A stretch of DNA of 13,303 nucleotides from a virus (taxonomy: Duplodnaviria > Heunggongvirae > Uroviricota > Caudoviricetes), in the IMG/VR virus record IMGVR_UViG_648276647_000015, positions 1-13,303 of that record. The stretch is one strand, 5' to 3'. Positions 2,462-12,891 of the stretch are shown here, piece by piece. The notes beneath the pieces were generated by a model. The model did no database searches. It had not been told where the DNA came from and saw nothing but the letters and a program-made list of their open reading frames with translations. The number at the start of each line of letters is the position of its first letter. The stretch's first letter is position 1. A program made the translations under genes and the position numbers.

Positions 2462-3208
2462 TCACTTCGCAATTCCTGGCTGGACGACATTCGGACGCCA
2501 GCTCTCCCAGTTAAAATTCACCCATCGCCCGCCGTTCATGGTCATGCGATCCATAATCCTCTCGCCGAGCAATGTTTTCATGGCCTCATAGTTCAGGTTT
2601 GTCAGCATCCCCACGCTGCGCATCGACGCTGTCCGGCGATCAACAATCTGGTGCAGCACCACCTGCTCGTTTTTTGTCTCGCGCTGAATGCCAATTTCAT
2701 CAAGAACCAGCAGATCCACTTCGCACAGCTCCCGCAAAAATTTTTCGCCTGACTGCCCGTCGTCATAGCTGGCGTGCAGGGCGCTCATAACATCAGCCAC
2801 GGTAACCACAATCACTGTCTGACCGTCTTTCAGCAGGCGATTCCCGATAGCTGCCGCTAAGTGATTCTTCCCGGTACCAGGTTTTCCGCTGAACGCAAAA
2901 TTTGTACACCCGGTCATCAGTTCATCGGTGATGGATTTCGCCTGGCTTAACGCGTATCGCTGGCCGTCGTTCTGCACCTGGTAATTCGCAAACGAGCATT
3001 TACGGTGCAACGGCTGGATGCCAGAGCGATTCAGAATTTTTTCCACCCGCAACTGACGATTCAGGCGGTTGATCTCCTCGCAACGTTTCTGGCCTTCAGC
3101 AAGTTGCCACTCACGCCACTCCGCAACCGTTCTGAATGGGGCGGTTACATGTGGTGGGGTCAGTCTGCGGATACGCTCCAGAACGCCGCCTGTCGCAATA
3201 TTTTTCAT
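2462..3208 (-). CDS. ydaV: DnaC-like replicative helicase loader (AAA+ ATPase), 248 aa
   Basis: Walker A-like [17 protein letters not shown] and Walker B LLVLDEIG; length and position immediately downstream of the initiator gene match Rac YdaV / phage P-type loader. ATG at 3208 with RBS; stop of upstream gene 7 nt away. Confidence 0.8.
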
Positions 3209-3214
3209 GGTCTG

Positions 3215-4003
3215 TTACCCCCTGAAGCCTGGCGGGATCGCACTGTCCGGCAACGAGACGGTGTTAACCTGTCGGAGCAACGTCTCAGGCCGAACACCTT
3301 TCGGCGCGAACAGGCCCTGGTATTCATTGGCGATACTGTGTCGAATCACCTGCTCAGGTGTAAAACCCTGCTGGCGGAATTTTTCCAGCTCCCGTATCGC
3401 CCCGTTAGCGCCCTGCTCCGTTCGAATCGGTTTTCGCAATGCCTGCCTGAACCGGACCCACTCATGCCAGAGTGTTTCCGGCAACCAATCGGGCAGCTCA
3501 ATAGCCTCCGGCTCAAATTTTTTAGACGCTCGTTTTTGGCGAGGGGGATTTAGGGGGAGATCAGTATTTATATCTTCCTCTTCCTCTTCCTCTGGTAACG
3601 CTTTTTGATCCGTTTGTGTAACGCTGCCAGCGTTACCTTTTCGTTTCAGTTCGCGTATTTTTGTAACTCGCTCGTTTGTAACCGCCCGTTTTTTAGAGCT
3701 TTTCCCGTTATGACGTTCAAAGTTAGGTAGAGAAAGCCCACCGTCATTTTCGACCAGCCATCCAACCTGAATTAACGCATCAGCAAAACCAGCCATAAAA
3801 GTGATGCGATCTATTGCACTTTTTGTAACGCCGCGAGCGTTACAATCTGCATTACCGTCTATCATTTGTTGATCCGCCCATGCCCAGAAGCGAATAACCT
3901 TCCCTAATGCGGCATCTGGATCAATATTCAGAATCTCAGCAAGCCTGAATATTTCCGGCTTATCCGGCGTAATAACCTCGAGCTTTATCCAGTTTGAAGC
4001 CAT
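3215..4003 (-). CDS. ydaU: Putative phage replication initiation protein (YdaU / DUF1376-like), 262 aa, acidic EEEEEED linker
   Basis: Position upstream of the DnaC-like loader and downstream of the cro/cII-like genes; contains repeated palindromic DNA motifs (listed separately) as origins within lambdoid initiator genes do. ATG at 4003 with AAGGTG RBS. Family assignment from memory. Confidence 0.65.
   Translation of the reverse strand: MASNWIKLEVITPDKPEIFRLAEILNIDPDAALGKVIRFWAWADQQMIDGNADCNARGVTKSAIDRITFMAGFADALIQVGWLVENDGGLSLPNFERHNGKSSKKRAVTNERVTKIRELKRKGNAGSVTQTDQKALPEEEEEEDINTDLPLNPPRQKRASKKFEPEAIELPDWLPETLWHEWVRFRQALRKPIRTEQGANGAIRELEKFRQQGFTPEQVIRHSIANEYQGLFAPKGVRPETLLRQVNTVSLPDSAIPPGFRG
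3617..3637. repeat. 21-bp palindrome TGTAACGC-TGCCA-GCGTTACc (copy 1 of 3), inside the initiator gene
   Basis: Read directly; half-site-like TGTAAC also at 3662-3667 and 3677-3682 in the same orientation. Confidence 0.8.
3824..3844. repeat. 21-bp perfect palindrome TGTAACGC-CGCGA-GCGTTACA (copy 2 of 3), inside the initiator gene
   Basis: Read directly from sequence. Confidence 0.8.
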
Positions 4004-4015
4004 TTGTTTTCACCT

Positions 4016-4036
4016 TGTAACGCTCGCAGCGTTACA
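4016..4036. repeat. 21-bp perfect palindrome TGTAACGC-TCGCA-GCGTTACA (copy 3 of 3), in the ydaT-ydaU intergenic region directly upstream of the initiator RBS
   Basis: Read directly from sequence; sits 13 bp upstream of the initiator start codon. Confidence 0.8.
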
Positions 4037-4080
4037 TTTAACTGATACCGAACAAAACAATCCGGCACGATCAATTTCAA

Positions 4081-4503
4081 TCAATGCACTACGACAGAAT
4101 CGCCGGGCGACCCACCACCGCTGAAATGTGCTTTCCGGTAAACGGCCTGGACTGCATCATCATGCGCATCAATTGCCGTACTCAACGCTTCCTGCGCCGC
4201 CAGTAATGCACGGCGCTCCAGGGTATCGAAGATGCAGAGTCGGTGACGCAGCTCGCGCGGAAGAATTGCCAGAACCGCAGGGATGAGTTTCTGAATTTTT
4301 TCCCTTTGCGCTTTCGTTTCACCTTTCAACCAACGGTGATAGATATTCTGCTGATTGTTCCAGTCCTTGCCTGGTACAAGGGGCAATTCGCCGCCCCCCT
4401 GGCGCAGATATTCTTCAGTAATTGCGTTAGCGACCCACGCCTGCCCTTTTTCGGCTGCCAGGGCTAACAACACTGATTCGATATGCTCATGCCTGATTTT
4501 CAT
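4081..4503 (-). CDS. ydaT: CII-like regulator YdaT-like protein, 140 aa
   Basis: Sequence (MKIRHEHIESVLLALAAEKGQAWVANAITEEYLRQGGGELPLVPGKDW...) and 140-aa length match my recollection of Rac YdaT; ATG overlaps the stop of the upstream Cro-like gene as ATGA; AGGAG RBS 9 nt upstream. Confidence 0.8.
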   Translation of the reverse strand: MKIRHEHIESVLLALAAEKGQAWVANAITEEYLRQGGGELPLVPGKDWNNQQNIYHRWLKGETKAQREKIQKLIPAVLAILPRELRHRLCIFDTLERRALLAAQEALSTAIDAHDDAVQAVYRKAHFSGGGSPGDSVVVH

Positions 4504-4742
4504 GAATCAACCGCTCCTATGCTGTTTTCGCTATGCTTACCGTCTGGGGGGAATACATCGTCAAGTCCACAATGAGCGCCAAGCCGATTAAGGGTAGAAA
4601 CAATTTTTCTGCACTCCTCTAGTCCAGGGGTACGAAAATTTGCTTCGTAATTTGCCAGTCGGCTTTGTATCCACCCTAACTGAACAGCAAGTTGTCTTTG
4701 AGACAGCCCAAGCTGTTTTCGATATGTTGAAATTTTGTTCAT
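4500..4742 (-). CDS. ydaS: Cro-like HTH (XRE-family) regulator, YdaS-like, 80 aa
   Basis: HTH signature QRQLAVQLGWIQSRLANYE; divergent from the repressor gene across an operator region; GGAGG RBS with 6-nt spacer; first gene of the minus-strand operon. Confidence 0.8.
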   Translation of the reverse strand: MNKISTYRKQLGLSQRQLAVQLGWIQSRLANYEANFRTPGLEECRKIVSTLNRLGAHCGLDDVFPPDGKHSENSIGAVDS

Positions 4743-4838
4743 TGAAAACCTCCGATGACAATTTTAAACACATCTTGTGTTATATGGTCAAGCTGTTTTG
4801 TGTTTTATGTAAATCACGATTCGTGATACAAGGATGCA
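4743..4838. promoter_or_regulatory. Divergent immunity control region (oR/pR-pRM-like) with two 15-bp palindromes: AACAC-ATCTT-GTGTT (4767-4781) and ATCAC-GATTC-GTGAT (4813-4827)
   Basis: Leftward promoter candidate: -35 TTGACC (plus-strand 4786-4791) and -10 TTTAAA/TAAAAT (about 4761-4766), with the first palindrome in the spacer. Second palindrome lies 12 bp upstream of the repressor ATG. Confidence 0.6.
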
Positions 4839-5258
4839 ATGGAAAAAGAAAACGAAAAAATTGCCGCTAGTAGGCTCAATGACAAAATTGCAATGCGTCT
4901 TAAAGAGCGCAGGCAGAAGCTTGGTTTATCTCAAGGAAAACTTGCTGAAATCTGCGGATGGACGCAATCGCGTATAGGTAACTATGAGGCGGGCAGCAGA
5001 AATGTTGGAGTGCATGACGCTGTCGTATTGGGAAAGGCACTTGGCATATCTCCTCCTGAGCTCCTCTTTGGAGAACAGGAATCTTCTGAATTGTGGTTAA
5101 ATGAATCCCAACGAAAACTTCTTGAGTTGTTTAACCAGCTACCGGGCTCAGAACAACAACGAATGATTGAGCTATTTGAAGTCCGGCTAAAAGAAATCGA
5201 TGAGTATGTAGAAAAATATTTGAGAGGCAGGCTTAAAGATAATCCCTCACCGGAGTAA
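4839..5258 (+). CDS. racR: Prophage repressor, RacR-like (XRE-family HTH, no S24 peptidase domain), 139 aa
   Basis: HTH signature QGKLAEICGWTQSRIGNYE in the N-terminal half; divergent to the cro-like gene; 139 aa is too short to include a LexA-type autocleavage domain. Symbol assigned by context with the YdaS/YdaT-like pair. Confidence 0.7.
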   Translation: MEKENEKIAASRLNDKIAMRLKERRQKLGLSQGKLAEICGWTQSRIGNYEAGSRNVGVHDAVVLGKALGISPPELLFGEQESSELWLNESQRKLLELFNQLPGSEQQRMIELFEVRLKEIDEYVEKYLRGRLKDNPSPE

Positions 5259-5288
5259 TGAGCTTGCTATCACAGTAATATGCCAATC

Positions 5289-5312
5289 AGCCCGCTATCA
5301 GCGGGCTTTTTT
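5289..5312 (+). terminator. Rho-independent terminator after the repressor gene
   Basis: Stem AGCCCGCT (5289-5296) / AGCGGGCT (5300-5307), 3-nt loop, followed by TTTTTT. Confidence 0.75.
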
Positions 5313-5341
5313 GTACCATCATCATATGACACTCACCACAA

Positions 5342-5384
5342 AACACATTTCGTGTTGACATAAGAAAACGCATTGTGTTTAATA
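5342..5384 (+). promoter_or_regulatory. pL-like early-left promoter with operator: AACAC-ATTTC-GTGTT (5342-5356) abutting -35 TTGACA (5355-5360), 17-bp spacer, -10 TTTAAT (5378-5383)
   Basis: Consensus -35 hexamer and 5/6 -10; the palindrome has the same 5+5+5 architecture as the one in the cro promoter spacer; an imperfect third copy AACGC-ATT-GTGTT at 5367-5379. Confidence 0.55.
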
Positions 5385-5564
5385 AGCATATCCAAACAAC
5401 GCCCCCACCAGAGAACGGCAGGACAATACCTCGAGTTATCCAGCCACTGAACAGGGCTAAGTAGCCAGCCTGAGGCATACGAACATGACGGCAGTTGTTG
5501 ATTGATACAAAGCGCAGTAGATAAAACGTTCCGCCACCCGGCGTTAAGGGGAAATGAGGTCAAC

Positions 5565-5717
5565 ATGGATACTATCGATCTTGGCAACAACGAATCTCTG
5601 GTATGTGGCGTGTTTCCCAACCAGGATGGAACGTTCACCGCCATGACTTATACCAAAAGCAAGACATTCAAAACTGAAACGGGCGCACGTCGCTGGCTTG
5701 CCAGAAATACTTGCTAA
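5565..5717 (+). CDS. Small conserved prophage protein, 50 aa (MDTIDLGNNESLVCGVFPNQDGTFTAMTYTKSKTFKTETGARRWLARNTC); possibly YdaF/YdaG-family
   Basis: ORF track entry 5502..5717 starts at a TTG; the internal ATG at 5565 has a GAGG RBS 4 nt upstream. Position between repressor and kilR matches small Rac ORFs; identity uncertain. Confidence 0.4.
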   Translation: MDTIDLGNNESLVCGVFPNQDGTFTAMTYTKSKTFKTETGARRWLARNTC

Positions 5718-10731: not shown

Positions 10732-10958
10732 GCGCAGCCACAAAGCTCACAGGAGAAAAACCAGTGCGATACACAAAAGTCAAACCATGCCCTTTTTGTG
10801 GTTGTCCATCAGTAACGGTGAAAGCCATTTCAGGATATTACCGCGCGAAGTGTAACGGATGCGAATCCCGAACCGGCTATGGTGGAAGTGAAAAAGAAGC
10901 ACTCGAACGATGGAATAAACGAACCACTGGAAATAATAATGGAGGTGTTCATGTATAA
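10728..10958 (+). CDS. Lar-like zinc-ribbon protein (putative restriction alleviation), 76 aa
   Basis: CPFCG ... CNGCE double CxxC motif and EALERWNKR segment resemble the Lar family; occupies the lar/ralR position after the recombinase genes. ATG 10728 overlaps the exo stop (ATGA) and has GGGGAG 8 nt upstream; ORF-track start 10722 is too close to the RBS. Confidence 0.5.
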
Positions 10959-11115
10959 AATTACCGCCACTATTGAAAAGGAAGGTGGCACTCCTACTAA
11001 CTGGACAAGGTACTCAAAAAACAAAGTTAACCAAATCGGAATGCGAAAAAATGCTCTCGGGGAAAAAAGAAGCAGGCGTTTCCAGAGAGCAGAAAGTAAA
11101 ACTGATAAATTTTAA
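10951..11115 (+). CDS. Small phage protein, 54 aa ([44 protein letters not shown]...), possibly YdaC/DUF1187-like
   Basis: ATG 10951 with GGAGG 5 nt upstream; ORF-track entry 10879..11115 is an N-terminal extension without an RBS. Identity uncertain. Confidence 0.4.
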   Translation: MYKITATIEKEGGTPTNWTRYSKNKVNQIGMRKNALGEKRSRRFQRAESKTDKF

Positions 11116-11246
11116 TTGCGAGAAACTTCTGTCCTCGTGAGTTGCATTATATCCAAATTAGAACTTCATAGCTGATTATTAAAAATCAATCACGTCCGCC
11201 AGTATTCTGTATATTTACTGGCGGTCATATCGTAAGAGGTATGGCA

Positions 11247-12667: not shown

Positions 12668-12701
12668 AGACGTTTGCAACTGATTGATTTTAAATACAAT
12701 T

Positions 12702-12804
12702 AAAAAAAGACCGAATACGATTCCTGTATTCGGTCCAGGGAAATGGCTCTTGGGAGAGAGCCGTGCGCTAAAAGTTGGCATTAATGCAGGCTTAGTTGCC
12801 TTGC
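12702..12804 (-). ncRNA. sdsR: SdsR (RyeB) small RNA, about 103 nt
   Basis: Reverse complement of 12702-12804 reads GCAAGGCAACTAAGCCTGCATTAATGCCAACTTTTAGCGCACGGCTCTCTCCCAAGAGCCATTTCCCTGGACCGAATACAGGAATCGTATTCGGTCTTTTTTT, matching my recollection of E. coli SdsR, including the terminator hairpin (10-bp arms, 7-nt loop) and U-run. A CTATTCT -10-like element sits just upstream. Confidence 0.7.
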
Positions 12805-12891
12805 TCTTTAAGAATAGATGACGACGCCAGGTTTTCCAGTTTGCGTGCAAAATGGTCAATAAAAAGCGTGGTGGTCATCAGCTTAAATATT

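Follow-up and report, generated by a model that had tools for sequence, protein, structure and literature searches.

The question raised by this locus is what binds a 15-base palindrome that recurs on both sides of a prophage repressor gene, and what kind of genetic switch the repeats would form. The stretch of DNA analysed (the window, 13,303 bp) is the immunity region of a lambdoid, Rac/Qin-like prophage that sits beside yebY/copD in E. coli. A divergent repressor/cro pair is followed by a cII analogue and replication genes, which is the layout of a lambdoid immunity region:

2462-3208, minus strand: DnaC/IstB-like ATPase gene
3215-4003, minus strand: O-like initiator gene
4081-4503, minus strand: YdaT (CII-like) gene (Pfam YdaT_toxin; PHROG 163, CII-like activator)
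4493-4510: YdaT-box-like dyad CTGATTttcatgAATCAA on the junction of the cro stop and the ydaT start, with one mismatch to TTGATT-N6-AATCAA
4500-4742, minus strand: Cro-like gene, 80 aa (Pfam HTH_3, E = 6.7e-10)
4839-5258, plus strand: repressor gene, 139 aa, ATG at 4839
5289-5313, plus strand: intrinsic terminator after the repressor gene (8-pair stem with 6 G-C pairs, then a T run)
5565-5717, plus strand: ydfA-like gene (DUF1391, Pfam E = 1.5e-29), first in the pL operon

The annotation of a 99.7% identical E. coli locus, the nearest relative, continues the pL operon after ydfA with kil, ydaE, recE, gam/bet/exo, ralR, xis and int; further left, that locus has an ORF6N-domain gene. The terminator is the boundary between the repressor transcript and the pL-like promoter, and equivalent hairpins are present in homologous loci. 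The immunity module is detected at a coverage of at least 80% in 153 of 5,426 complete E. coli genomes, and relatives of the module were found across Enterobacterales.

The original prediction placed AACAC-N5-GTGTT at both early promoters, and we confirm this: the exact pattern AACACNNNNNGTGTT has two matches in the window (4767-4781 and 5342-5356) where 0.01 are expected from shuffles, and none of 200 shuffles reached two. With up to 2 mismatches allowed, 17 matches are found in the window against 6.5 expected. A related dyad reported just before the repressor start, ATCAC-N5-GTGAT, is real as well (4813-4827). These three dyads stand, but the count of two cro-side sites and one downstream site does not, as 4790-4804 and 5365-5379 had been missed. 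The set comprises three oR-like and two oL-like sites:

4767-4781: predicted oR1-like operator, perfect dyad AACACATCTTGTGTT / AACACatcttGTGTT, filling the spacer of the leftward (cro-side) promoter
4790-4804: predicted oR2-like operator, degenerate, AAGCTGTTTTGTGTT / AAGCTgttttGTGTT, with the right half alone intact
4813-4827: predicted oR3-like operator, perfect dyad ATCACGATTCGTGAT / ATCACgattcGTGAT
5342-5356: predicted oL1-like operator, perfect dyad and exact match, AACACATTTCGTGTT / AACACatttcGTGTT
5365-5379: predicted oL2-like operator, 1 mismatch, AAAACGCATTGTGTT / AAAACgcattGTGTT, in the spacer of the rightward promoter

The sites are centred at 4774, 4797 and 4820 on the cro side, where the middle one is a half-site, and at 5349 and 5372 on the pL side, so that neighbours are exactly 23 bp apart. 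They coincide with three candidate promoters:

4761-4791, minus strand: putative PR-like leftward promoter, -35 TTGACC (4791-4786)
4827-4832, plus strand: candidate -10 TACAAG of a PRM-like promoter of the repressor gene (4/6 consensus; low confidence)
5355-5385, plus strand: putative pL-like rightward promoter, -35 TTGACA (5355-5360)

A consensus promoter scan flagged neither early promoter, their -10 elements being imperfect or needing a 19-bp spacer, and both are therefore predicted from hexamers and conservation. On the left, the 4767-4781 dyad lies between the minus-strand TTGACC and TAAAAT (4766-4761, 19-bp spacer; the other -10 candidate is TTTAAA, 4768-4763, with a 17-bp spacer), and GGAGG (4753-4749) and the cro ATG (4742) follow downstream. 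In all homologues GTCAA is found 4-6 nt after this dyad. The half-site at 4790-4804 overlaps the leftward -35 by 2 bp. On the right, the 5342-5356 dyad shares 2 bp with TTGACA, and the -10 candidates are TTTAAT (5378-5383, 17-bp spacer) and TAATAA (5380-5385, 19-bp spacer). Both early promoters are laid out alike, with one operator on the -35 and one in the spacer, and the pL-like promoter is homologous in position to dicBp, the driver of ydfA.

The third cro-side dyad (4813-4827) ends 11 nt upstream of the repressor ATG and overlaps the predicted -10 of the repressor's own promoter; the centre of the middle site (4797) would lie around -41/-42 from the start of this transcript. Transcription from TACAAG would begin at or beside the ATG and, with low confidence, might be leaderless, as described for lambda cI and PaaR2 (PMC8630535). 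The homologues have TAAAAT, TAGAAT, TAATAT or TAAGAT directly after the dyad, 6-9 nt before the repressor ATG. In the window the -10 is poor and a Shine-Dalgarno-like AAGGA comes after it, which weakens the case for a leaderless transcript in this clade.

The repressor combines an N-terminal HTH with a C-terminal helical hairpin (DicA-type). That it has no autocleavage domain, as had been proposed, is borne out by its length of 139 aa, by Pfam, which identifies HTH families alone and no Peptidase_S24, and by an all-helical AF2 model (pLDDT 86.5) with a C-terminal helical hairpin; Foldseek searches with this model returned matches to the HTH domain only and nothing informative for the hairpin. 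Because the C-terminal half is a helical hairpin and not an S24 protease, induction via RecA-stimulated self-cleavage is not expected. The description of the protein as RacR-like is not upheld. BLASTP against K-12 RacR gives E = 2.0 without a meaningful alignment, whereas DicA is matched with E = 2e-15 (29% identity over residues 14-135, spanning both domains, with the motif LELF..LP.SEQ in common). Membership of the RacR family is rejected for this lack of detectable similarity, and what is Rac-like in the window is the gene neighbourhood alone (ydaT, kil, recE). The N-domain is 58% identical to that of mEp213 cI, and the QS of the recognition helix aligns with the Gln-Ser of helix 3 of lambda cI in the same register.

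We compared site positions in about 20 diverged loci of nine genera, including loci with 55-85% identical repressors from Salmonella, Citrobacter, Dryocola, Pectobacterium, Kosakonia, Enterobacter and an Aeromonas phage. Counted from the repressor ATG, dyads centred at -65/-66 and at -19 recur in most of the related loci; further dyads lie around -42 and, at the downstream promoter, over the -35 and within the spacer. Full middle sites occur at the position equivalent to 4790-4804 in loci L087 and L090 and in mEp213. Where the early-left promoter follows the repressor gene, most homologues, among them mEp213, have an equivalent of oL1. In the majority this dyad overlaps the TTGAC hexamer; in L091 it abuts the hexamer directly, and in L089 it is degenerate. 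The second dyad in the pL spacer is also present in Chris1, pAEv1818, L091 and L089.

Variation at shorter distances was read from 81 close-relative loci, many of them nearly identical. Across these, variation falls in the N5 centres and in the spacers between sites, and the half-sites stay invariant, although oL2 also varies in its left half. At 4767-4781 four of the five central bases vary (36 distinct variants) between invariant half-sites; 4796-4806 is invariant next to a variable 4792-4795; only the two central bases vary at 4813-4827; both half-sites of 5342-5356 are invariant around a variable centre; and at oL2 GTGTTTAAT is invariant, with variation in the centre and the left half. Near-identical sequences in which centres and spacers have changed repeatedly and half-sites have stayed fixed point to selection on the half-sites.

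The half-sites also follow the protein. Recognition helices of the form QSR[IV]G pair with AACAC half-sites, T[AG]SR[VI]G with GACAC/GCCAC, and SG[AS][SP]R[IV]A with TTCAC/CTCAC, each class being seen in several independent loci. Relatives that share the C-terminal domain alone have a different HTH and TAAAC-N5-GTTTA-type dyads at the same two places. Very probably, then, judging from sequence comparison, the repeated palindromes are the binding sites of the short non-cleavable repressor and its Cro-like partner at both early promoters.

Other origins for the dyads account for the observations less well. Chance palindromes in A/T-rich intergenic DNA come to mind because 2-mismatch matches are frequent (expectation for the window, 6.5), but the shuffles, the 23-bp register, the conservation of positions across genera and the variation in relatives refute this idea, whose probability we regard as negligible. 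Only marginally more credible is a role of the inverted repeats as hairpins in the nucleic acid, for instance as RNA attenuators or processing sites, instead of as sites for a protein. Paired changes in the two arms (AACAC/GTGTT, GACAC/GTGTC, TTCAC/GTGAA) would indeed be expected of a conserved hairpin; yet the sites are located within promoter spacers or over -35 hexamers and precede the starts that they would regulate, their stems would be A/T-rich and 5 bp long, conserved asymmetric sites (AACAC..GTGGT, AAAAC..GTGTT) break the pairing, and the arm sequence follows the class of the protein. That another regulator binds the dyads, be it the CII-like YdaT or a transcription factor of the host, is also improbable, if somewhat less so. 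Such binding has a precedent in Rac, where YdaT also binds in the racR-ydaS intergenic region and host OxyR acts there (PMC11879457). The published YdaT motif is different, however (TTGATT-N6-AATCAA, PMC9986795), and has a candidate of its own at 4493-4510, and on these grounds YdaT is rejected as the dyad binder. Moreover, the half-site flanks covary with the recognition helix of the repressor and not with the host, and mEp213 has the same operators with a different CII (annotated as a lambda-type CII-like activator with a TTGC-N6-TTGC site).

The most serious competitor, itself unlikely, is that the dyads are relics of a cryptic prophage, the switch being dead and the sites persisting through recent spread of the region. 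A frameshifted gene and a truncated recE are present in the 99.7% identical locus, which raises the possibility that the prophage is defective; and since the 81 close relatives include many near-identical sequences, part of the conservation is shared ancestry. Against this, the reading frames of repressor, cro and ydaT are intact in the window, and the repeated change of centres and spacers around constant half-sites in the 81 loci is mirrored by the same pattern across genera. Rac and Qin retain the equivalent repressors since toxic kil or dicB is released when these are lost (PMC5700373; PMC10448788), and the pL operon here likewise carries kil. A repressor/Cro switch on shared operators, with a non-cleavable repressor, is the explanation that we hold to be highly likely as a whole.

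A close precedent is the DicA/DicC/dicBp system of the Qin prophage of E. coli K-12 (Bejar et al. 1988; Yun et al. 2012, PMC3441716; Ragunathan et al. 2023, PMC10448788), in which DicA is a repressor of dicCp and dicBp and, from the operator Oc, an activator of its own gene (PMC3441716; PMC10448788). A Cro-like gene, a short repressor on the opposite strand, a promoter and ydfA (DUF1391) occur in the same order in both prophages, the short DicA is homologous to the repressor over both domains and has no cleavage domain, and predicted operators are intergenic and at the downstream promoter, K-12 dicBp consisting of an operator, TTGACC and a spacer operator. The operator sequences are nevertheless unrelated (Oc, TTGTTAGTCATAACTAACAA, against AACAC-N5-GTGTT in the window), and the N-domain of the repressor is much nearer to mEp213 cI than to DicA. 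Downstream, Qin has dicF and dicB where the window has Rac-type kil and rec genes, and K-12 dicBp is without a structured leader. One of three predicted intergenic operators was bound by DicA in vivo (PMC3441716), so predicted sites need not all be used.

A short non-cleavable repressor divergent from a Cro-like gene and then ydaT is also found in CP-933P and Rac (PMC8630535, PMC9986795, PMC5700373, PMC11879457), and in CP-933P footprinting and reporters showed that operators of the intergenic region recur at a PL-like promoter (PMC8630535). The pL of K-12 Rac has two dyads around TTGACA and the same long-form leader as the window (see below). The differences lie in RacR, which has no detectable similarity to the repressor of the window, in the operators (TTAGGCATAGCCTA in Rac, GTTTAGTAA-type repeats in CP-933P) and in the toxin-antitoxin pair that stands behind the CP-933P repressor. 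As this arrangement is already established for Qin, CP-933P and Rac, it is not unusual.

A close match in operator type is phage mEp213 (NC_019720). Its operators are A(A/T/C)CAC-N5-GTG(T/A/G)(T/A), three oR and three oL (two oL in the window), and one of the oL sites overlaps TTGACA in just the way that oL1 of the window does. In the window, too, the helix GW..QSRIGNYE goes with AnCAC-N5-GTGnT operators. Our literature search found no published operator study of mEp213, so its operators, too, are read from sequence. In contrast to the repressor of the window, mEp213 cI is 213 aa long, is annotated as LexA family (S24 self-cleavage domain) and is SOS-cleavable; mEp213 also differs in its N gene, in a lambda-like CII and in a leader sequence resembling lambda nutL.

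Lambda itself shares with the window the divergent repressor/cro pair, three OR sites spaced by about 23 bp, a repeat of these sites at PL, and a repressor gene between OR and PL. The core of the lambda operator half-site is ATCAC (TATCACCGCCAGTGGTA), which the half-site core of the window resembles, and the lambda recognition helix begins with Gln-Ser in the same register. The window differs in that its repressor has no S24 domain, its CII analogue is YdaT and it has no N gene. The proposal of a lambda-type oR/oL arrangement, with one repressor for both early operons, is supported by site position, variation in relatives, covariation, mEp213, the DicA precedent and the all-helical fold of the repressor. 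The locus is very probably an ordinary lambda/Qin-type switch with an operator sequence that is so far undescribed.

In such a switch, the 139-aa repressor would bind as a dimer, perhaps cooperatively, to 15-bp dyads of the form A(A/T)CAC-N5-GTG(T/A)T, three of which lie in the interval that separates the divergent repressor and cro genes, and two at the promoter that follows the repressor gene. With one site on the -35 and one filling the spacer at each early promoter, bound repressor is expected to exclude RNA polymerase. This would shut both the leftward operon (cro, ydaT and the replication genes) and the rightward operon (ydfA, kil, the recombination genes and int). Occupancy of the third cro-side site would cover the repressor's own promoter, and the degenerate middle site, some 42 bp upstream of the predicted repressor start, is in the position used by lambda cI and DicA for self-activation and might serve the same role.

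The Cro-like protein is 55% identical to mEp213 Cro and 45% identical to its partner repressor across the HTH, with the helix GWIQSRLANYE against GWTQSRIGNYE. Given this near-identical recognition helix, the 80-aa protein most likely competes for the same sites, which would make the switch bistable. Two loci (L157 and L200) have the same Cro recognition helix and yet a repressor of another class with TTCAC/CTCAC operators; in view of this mismatch, Cro may recognise chiefly the CAC core, or may use only some of the repressor's sites. Induction would probably proceed through an antirepressor or a Cro-driven flip, as for DicA; no antirepressor gene was found in the window.

The pL-like promoter is followed by a further conserved element:

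5397-5497, plus strand: structured pL leader, the diverged long form of an RNA motif that is widespread

The motif, a structured RNA with which pL transcripts begin, is supported by covariation; it starts about 15-20 nt after the -10. In the window the helix CAACGCC/GGC(A)GTTG closes the structure, 5409-5449 is a long hairpin, and the conserved strings are AAGTAGCC and GGCATACGAA. A covariance model built from the short form of the motif (R1) gave no match with default filters in the window, Rac, Qin, HK022, HK639 or mEp213, and with filters off it scored 10.8 bits in the window; this score is not significant, so that the long form of the window is tied to the short form by the common strings and by position. 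RNAalifold of nine long-form leaders yields a plausible long hairpin from sequences whose diversity is too low for a test. Rfam detects only RalA and SraC/SdsR in the whole window at gathering score, with nothing at pL, and permissive searches of the leader (window and Chris1) retrieved nothing relevant. The prophage sRNAs AgvB/AsxR and Pas are unrelated to the leader and lie elsewhere in prophages.

An N-type antiterminator is not annotated between the promoter and recE, where no ORF has a Pfam match except DUF1391. The leader is not an HK022-type put site by sequence: blastn of the leader finds no match in the HK022 region, a covariance model from the motif finds nothing in HK022 or HK639, and the put sequences of these two phages, read directly, are different from the motif apart from a common CAGGAUGA string. 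No second copy was found after PR (a putR equivalent), as the whole genome of Chris1 and bases 22000-40149 of ST64B (the immunity region and right arm) have one copy each, downstream of pL. The pL promoter may drive an undescribed, protein-independent antiterminator RNA.

The advance for the immunity module is modest: operators and promoters are assigned to it, together with a likely regulatory logic. The comparisons also show an exchange of DNA-binding domains between DicA-type short repressors and cleavable cI repressors, with the promoter-operator architecture kept, and the three helix classes with their three half-site flanks give a simple, testable rule for which prophages share immunity. 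With kil in the repressed operon, the choice between a prophage that is harmless and one that is toxic to its host probably falls to the switch, as it does to RacR and DicA. The leader motif may matter more than the operators, being well supported, widespread and located where HK022 has its antiterminator RNA. A more tentative reading, which we think possible and on balance doubtful, is that the repressor is a domain hybrid with mEp213-type specificity, conferring prophage immunity and a trans-dominant lock through a helix-operator code. If the repressor really binds mEp213-type operators, the prophage would be immune to mEp213-type phages, and a co-resident inducible prophage with the same operators could be held repressed after DNA damage. 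The correspondence of the first helix residue (Q, A/G or S) with the flanks (AA, GA/GC or TT/CT) would then be a usable immunity-group code for Enterobacterales prophages.

The 1.8-kb stretch around the dyads is 99.7% identical to a prophage of E. coli OkiPb01676 that adjoins yebY/copD, and the region as a whole is a lambdoid prophage immunity region with a Rac-type left arm.

Gene order around the dyads
Leftward, after the O-like initiator: DnaC/IstB-like ATPase gene
3215-4003, minus strand: O-like replication initiator, leftward of ydaT
4081-4503, minus strand: ydaT (Pfam YdaT_toxin; PHROG CII-like activator)
4500-4742, minus strand: Cro-like HTH gene, leftward from the dyads
4839-5258, plus strand: gene for a 139-aa HTH protein, the repressor
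5289-5307: terminator, rightward, after the repressor gene
5565-5717: ydfA (DUF1391), rightward, after the terminator
Rightward, after ydfA, in this order: kil, ydaE, recE, gam/bet/exo, ralR, xis, int

Rfam matches place the RalA antitoxin RNA opposite ralR (10957-11136, minus strand) and the SraC/RyeA and SdsR/RyeB pair just past the integrase, close to the window's right end (12698-12842, plus and minus strands).

The sequence AACACNNNNNGTGTT has two exact matches in the window, at 4767-4781 and 5342-5356, where 0.01 were expected (two were reached in 0 of 200 shuffles), which bears out the original prediction of one 15-bp dyad at both promoters. Once mismatches were allowed, ATCACgattcGTGAT at 4813-4827, the related dyad already predicted, was recovered together with AAAACgcattGTGTT at 5365-5379. 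The three dyads first listed are thus present, but that list lacked both the site at 5365-5379 and a half-site, AAGCTgttttGTGTT at 4790-4804, that was spotted by eye. The sites are centred at 4774, 4797, and 4820 on the cro side and at 5349 and 5372 on the pL side, always spaced by 23 bp. The minus strand of the cro side reads AACACaaaacAGCTT followed by GACC, atat, AACACaagatGTGTT and TAAAAT, and the rightward promoter region reads AACACatttcGTGTT followed by GACA, taag, AAAACgcattGTGTT and TAATAA. The two promoters are therefore built alike: at each, one operator overlaps the -35 by 2 bp and the other occupies the spacer and reaches into the -10. A consensus promoter scan called neither early promoter, because their -10 candidates are imperfect.

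Loci encoding relatives of the repressor were taken from phage records, IMG/VR, and one genome per species. All the named genus-level relatives have a CAC-N5-GTG dyad whose centre lies at -65/-66 relative to the repressor ATG; they comprise loci from Salmonella (encoding an 84% identical repressor), Citrobacter (phage Chris1 and two genomes), Dryocola, Pectobacterium, Kosakonia, Enterobacter, an Aeromonas phage, and a record titled Sphingomonas (L090). In these loci GTCAA, the leftward -35, follows 4-6 nt past this dyad, and another dyad has its centre at -19; a third, at about -42, is found in some loci only. Where the early-left promoter comes after the repressor gene, most loci carry a dyad at its TTGAC hexamer, overlapping it in most cases, directly abutting it in one locus (L091) and degenerate in another (L089), and in several the promoter spacer holds another dyad. 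The 81 close relatives compared, with 36 distinct sequences on the cro side and 50 on the pL side, have invariant half-sites at 4767-4781, 4813-4827, and 5342-5356; 4796-4806 and GTGTTTAAT (5375-5383) are also without variation, and the N5 centres and inter-site spacers vary at most positions. The central five bases of the second pL operator (5365-5379) differ among many isolates (L005-L068) whose sequences are otherwise 97-99% identical; counterparts have gcatt, gtatt, acatt, gaatt, atatt, aaatt, ccttt, and others. Such local diversity is unusually high for an operator centre.

The repressor matches only HTH families in Pfam. Its AlphaFold model (pLDDT 86.5, 16-sequence alignment) is all-helical, with five HTH helices and a C-terminal helical hairpin at residues 89-99 and 103-133, and Foldseek matched it in the PDB to HTH domains only (C.AhdI, P22 c2, 434, and lambda cI). 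The proposed absence of an autocleavage domain therefore stands. Homology to K-12 DicA extends across both domains of the protein (29% identity, E = 2e-15) and takes in the LELF..LP.SEQ motif. The protein has no similarity to RacR (E = 2.0), so the label "RacR-like" was wrong.

The recognition helix of the repressor covaries with the flanks of the operator, while the CAC core is constant. The helix GW(T/A)QSR(I/V)GNYE pairs with AACAC...GTGTT operators, GW(S/A)T(A/G)SR(V/I)GNYE with GACAC/GCCAC, and GWSG(A/S)(S/P)R(I/V)ANYE with TTCAC/CTCAC, each class being found in several independent loci. When aligned with the lambda cI N-domain, Gln-Ser of the window repressor falls on lambda Gln44-Ser45, which read outer half-site bases in lambda co-crystal work, consistent with this covariation. 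Within the HTH, the window's repressor and Cro have 45% identity and a common recognition-helix motif, GW.QSR(I/L)(G/A)NYE, which fits competition for the same predicted sites. Two IMG/VR loci (L157 and L200) encode a Cro with the window's helix, GWIQSRLANYE, beside a repressor of another class (GWSGSSRIANYE), and their operators are TTCAC/CTCAC. Cro may recognise chiefly the CAC core, or the cro module may be exchanged by recombination independently of the repressor module.

Relatives that match the repressor only in the C-terminal domain, and have another HTH, show dyads of the type TAAAC-N5-GTTTA at the two corresponding places. The dyads could in principle be chance palindromes, relics, or hairpins, but position, population variation, helix covariation, and these other-HTH relatives together make such readings unlikely. 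The same four comparative lines tie the dyads to the repressor as its predicted operators, and we regard the operator model as highly probable. Position, half-site invariance, and helix covariation likewise support the original idea of one repressor with shared operators at both early promoters.

Related loci have in common a strongly conserved ~65-nt leader past the pL-like promoter (for example L002, 3027-3107, and L228, 5864-5944, minus strand), which starts ~15-20 nt past the -10. It also occurs in numerous enterobacterial phages whose operators are unrelated, among them ST64B, SfV, SfII, SfIV, mEp237, SPN3UB, phiNP, Yersinia YeP1-3, and Providencia T5-like phages, and in >100 IMG/VR contigs. 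Rfam has no match to it. A structure made of a closing helix (6 bp), a hairpin (3 bp), and a further helix (5 bp) is 91.9% paired across 38 distinct sequences, versus 71% in shuffles (0 of 500 as high) and at most 42% in slid registers; covariation is strong, with changes on both sides in 9 of 14 pairs. Two unpaired strings, GGCAGGAcGCCCACGaAGUAGC and GGCAUA(C/U)GAA, hardly vary. A single copy, at pL, is present in Chris1 (whole genome) and in ST64B (bases 22000-40149 searched); mEp213, with an N gene and a lambda nutL-like leader sequence, lacks the motif. In the window the leader is a diverged long form (~5397-5497, plus strand) in which these strings recur in unchanged order and a ~40-nt hairpin takes the place of the 3-bp one; it scores only 10.8 bits against the short-form model. 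This form is found in 3549 of 5426 E. coli genomes, K-12 Rac included. The put RNAs of HK022 and HK639 occupy the same place but have no sequence similarity to the leader. An attractive guess is that the leader may be a protein-independent antiterminator. In the E. coli genomes L230-L235, the genes that precede the long form and ydfA differ widely: LexA-family (cleavable) repressors, HTH-only repressors, or a RelE/ParE toxin gene like that of CP-933P. The promoter-leader-ydfA unit thus moves irrespective of the repressor type.

Other palindromes lie to the left. The 20-bp TGTAACGC-N5-GCGTTACA has three copies ~200 bp apart (3617-3640, 3824-3847, and 4016-4039), two within the O-like initiator gene and one between it and ydaT, where 0.55 matches to its 10-base core are expected at one mismatch; these may be origin or initiator binding sites. 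At the junction of the cro stop and ydaT start, CTGATTttcatgAATCAA (4493-4510) departs at one position from the published YdaT box, TTGATT-N6-AATCAA (PMC9986795). In Rac and CP-933P, a YdaT box at the ydaT start activates a reverse PRE-like repressor promoter (PMC9986795; PMC11879457).

This operator arrangement is the textbook one in lambdoid and DicA-type immunity regions. Qin DicA/DicC/dicBp has predicted operators in the intergenic region and at the promoter past a short non-cleavable repressor, CP-933P PaaR2/YdaS has operators at both such places, shown by footprints and reporters, and intergenic operators are described for RacR of Rac. K-12 dicBp and Rac pL share the window's layout of operator, -35, and spacer operator, but with their own dyads. 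We found no paper describing an AACAC-N5-GTGTT operator. Coliphage mEp213 carries the same predicted operators as the window, at oR (AACACatattGTGAT, AACACaaatcGTGTA, and ACCACggaatGTGAT) and oL (AACACgtgttGTGAT, ATCACatttcGTGTT followed by GACA, and AACACaatttGTGAT). The N-domain of its 213-aa LexA-family cI is 58% identical to residues 12-80 of the window repressor, and the Cro proteins are 55% identical. What is specific to the window is this operator sequence and an mEp213-type DNA-binding domain joined to a DicA-type C-terminal domain.

Bound repressor would occlude the -35 and spacer at both early promoters, and the site at 4813-4827 would overlap the repressor's own promoter. In homologues the -19 dyad is directly followed by TAAAAT, TAGAAT, TAATAT, or TAAGAT, 6-9 nt before the ATG, a position that suggests a leaderless repressor mRNA, as in lambda cI and PaaR2 (PMC8630535). 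This is uncertain for the window, where the corresponding hexamer, TACAAG (4827-4832), is weak. The half-site at 4790-4804 would sit at about -42 from the repressor's transcription start. Lambda cI activates PRM from about this position, and DicA is proposed to activate dicA from it (PMC3441716). Induction would not proceed via RecA-stimulated cleavage; that of DicA involves the antirepressor Rem and also spontaneous or stress-driven, DicC-dependent flips (PMC10448788). A lambda/Qin-type switch, whose binding, activation, and induction steps we infer, is the best-supported reading of this region.
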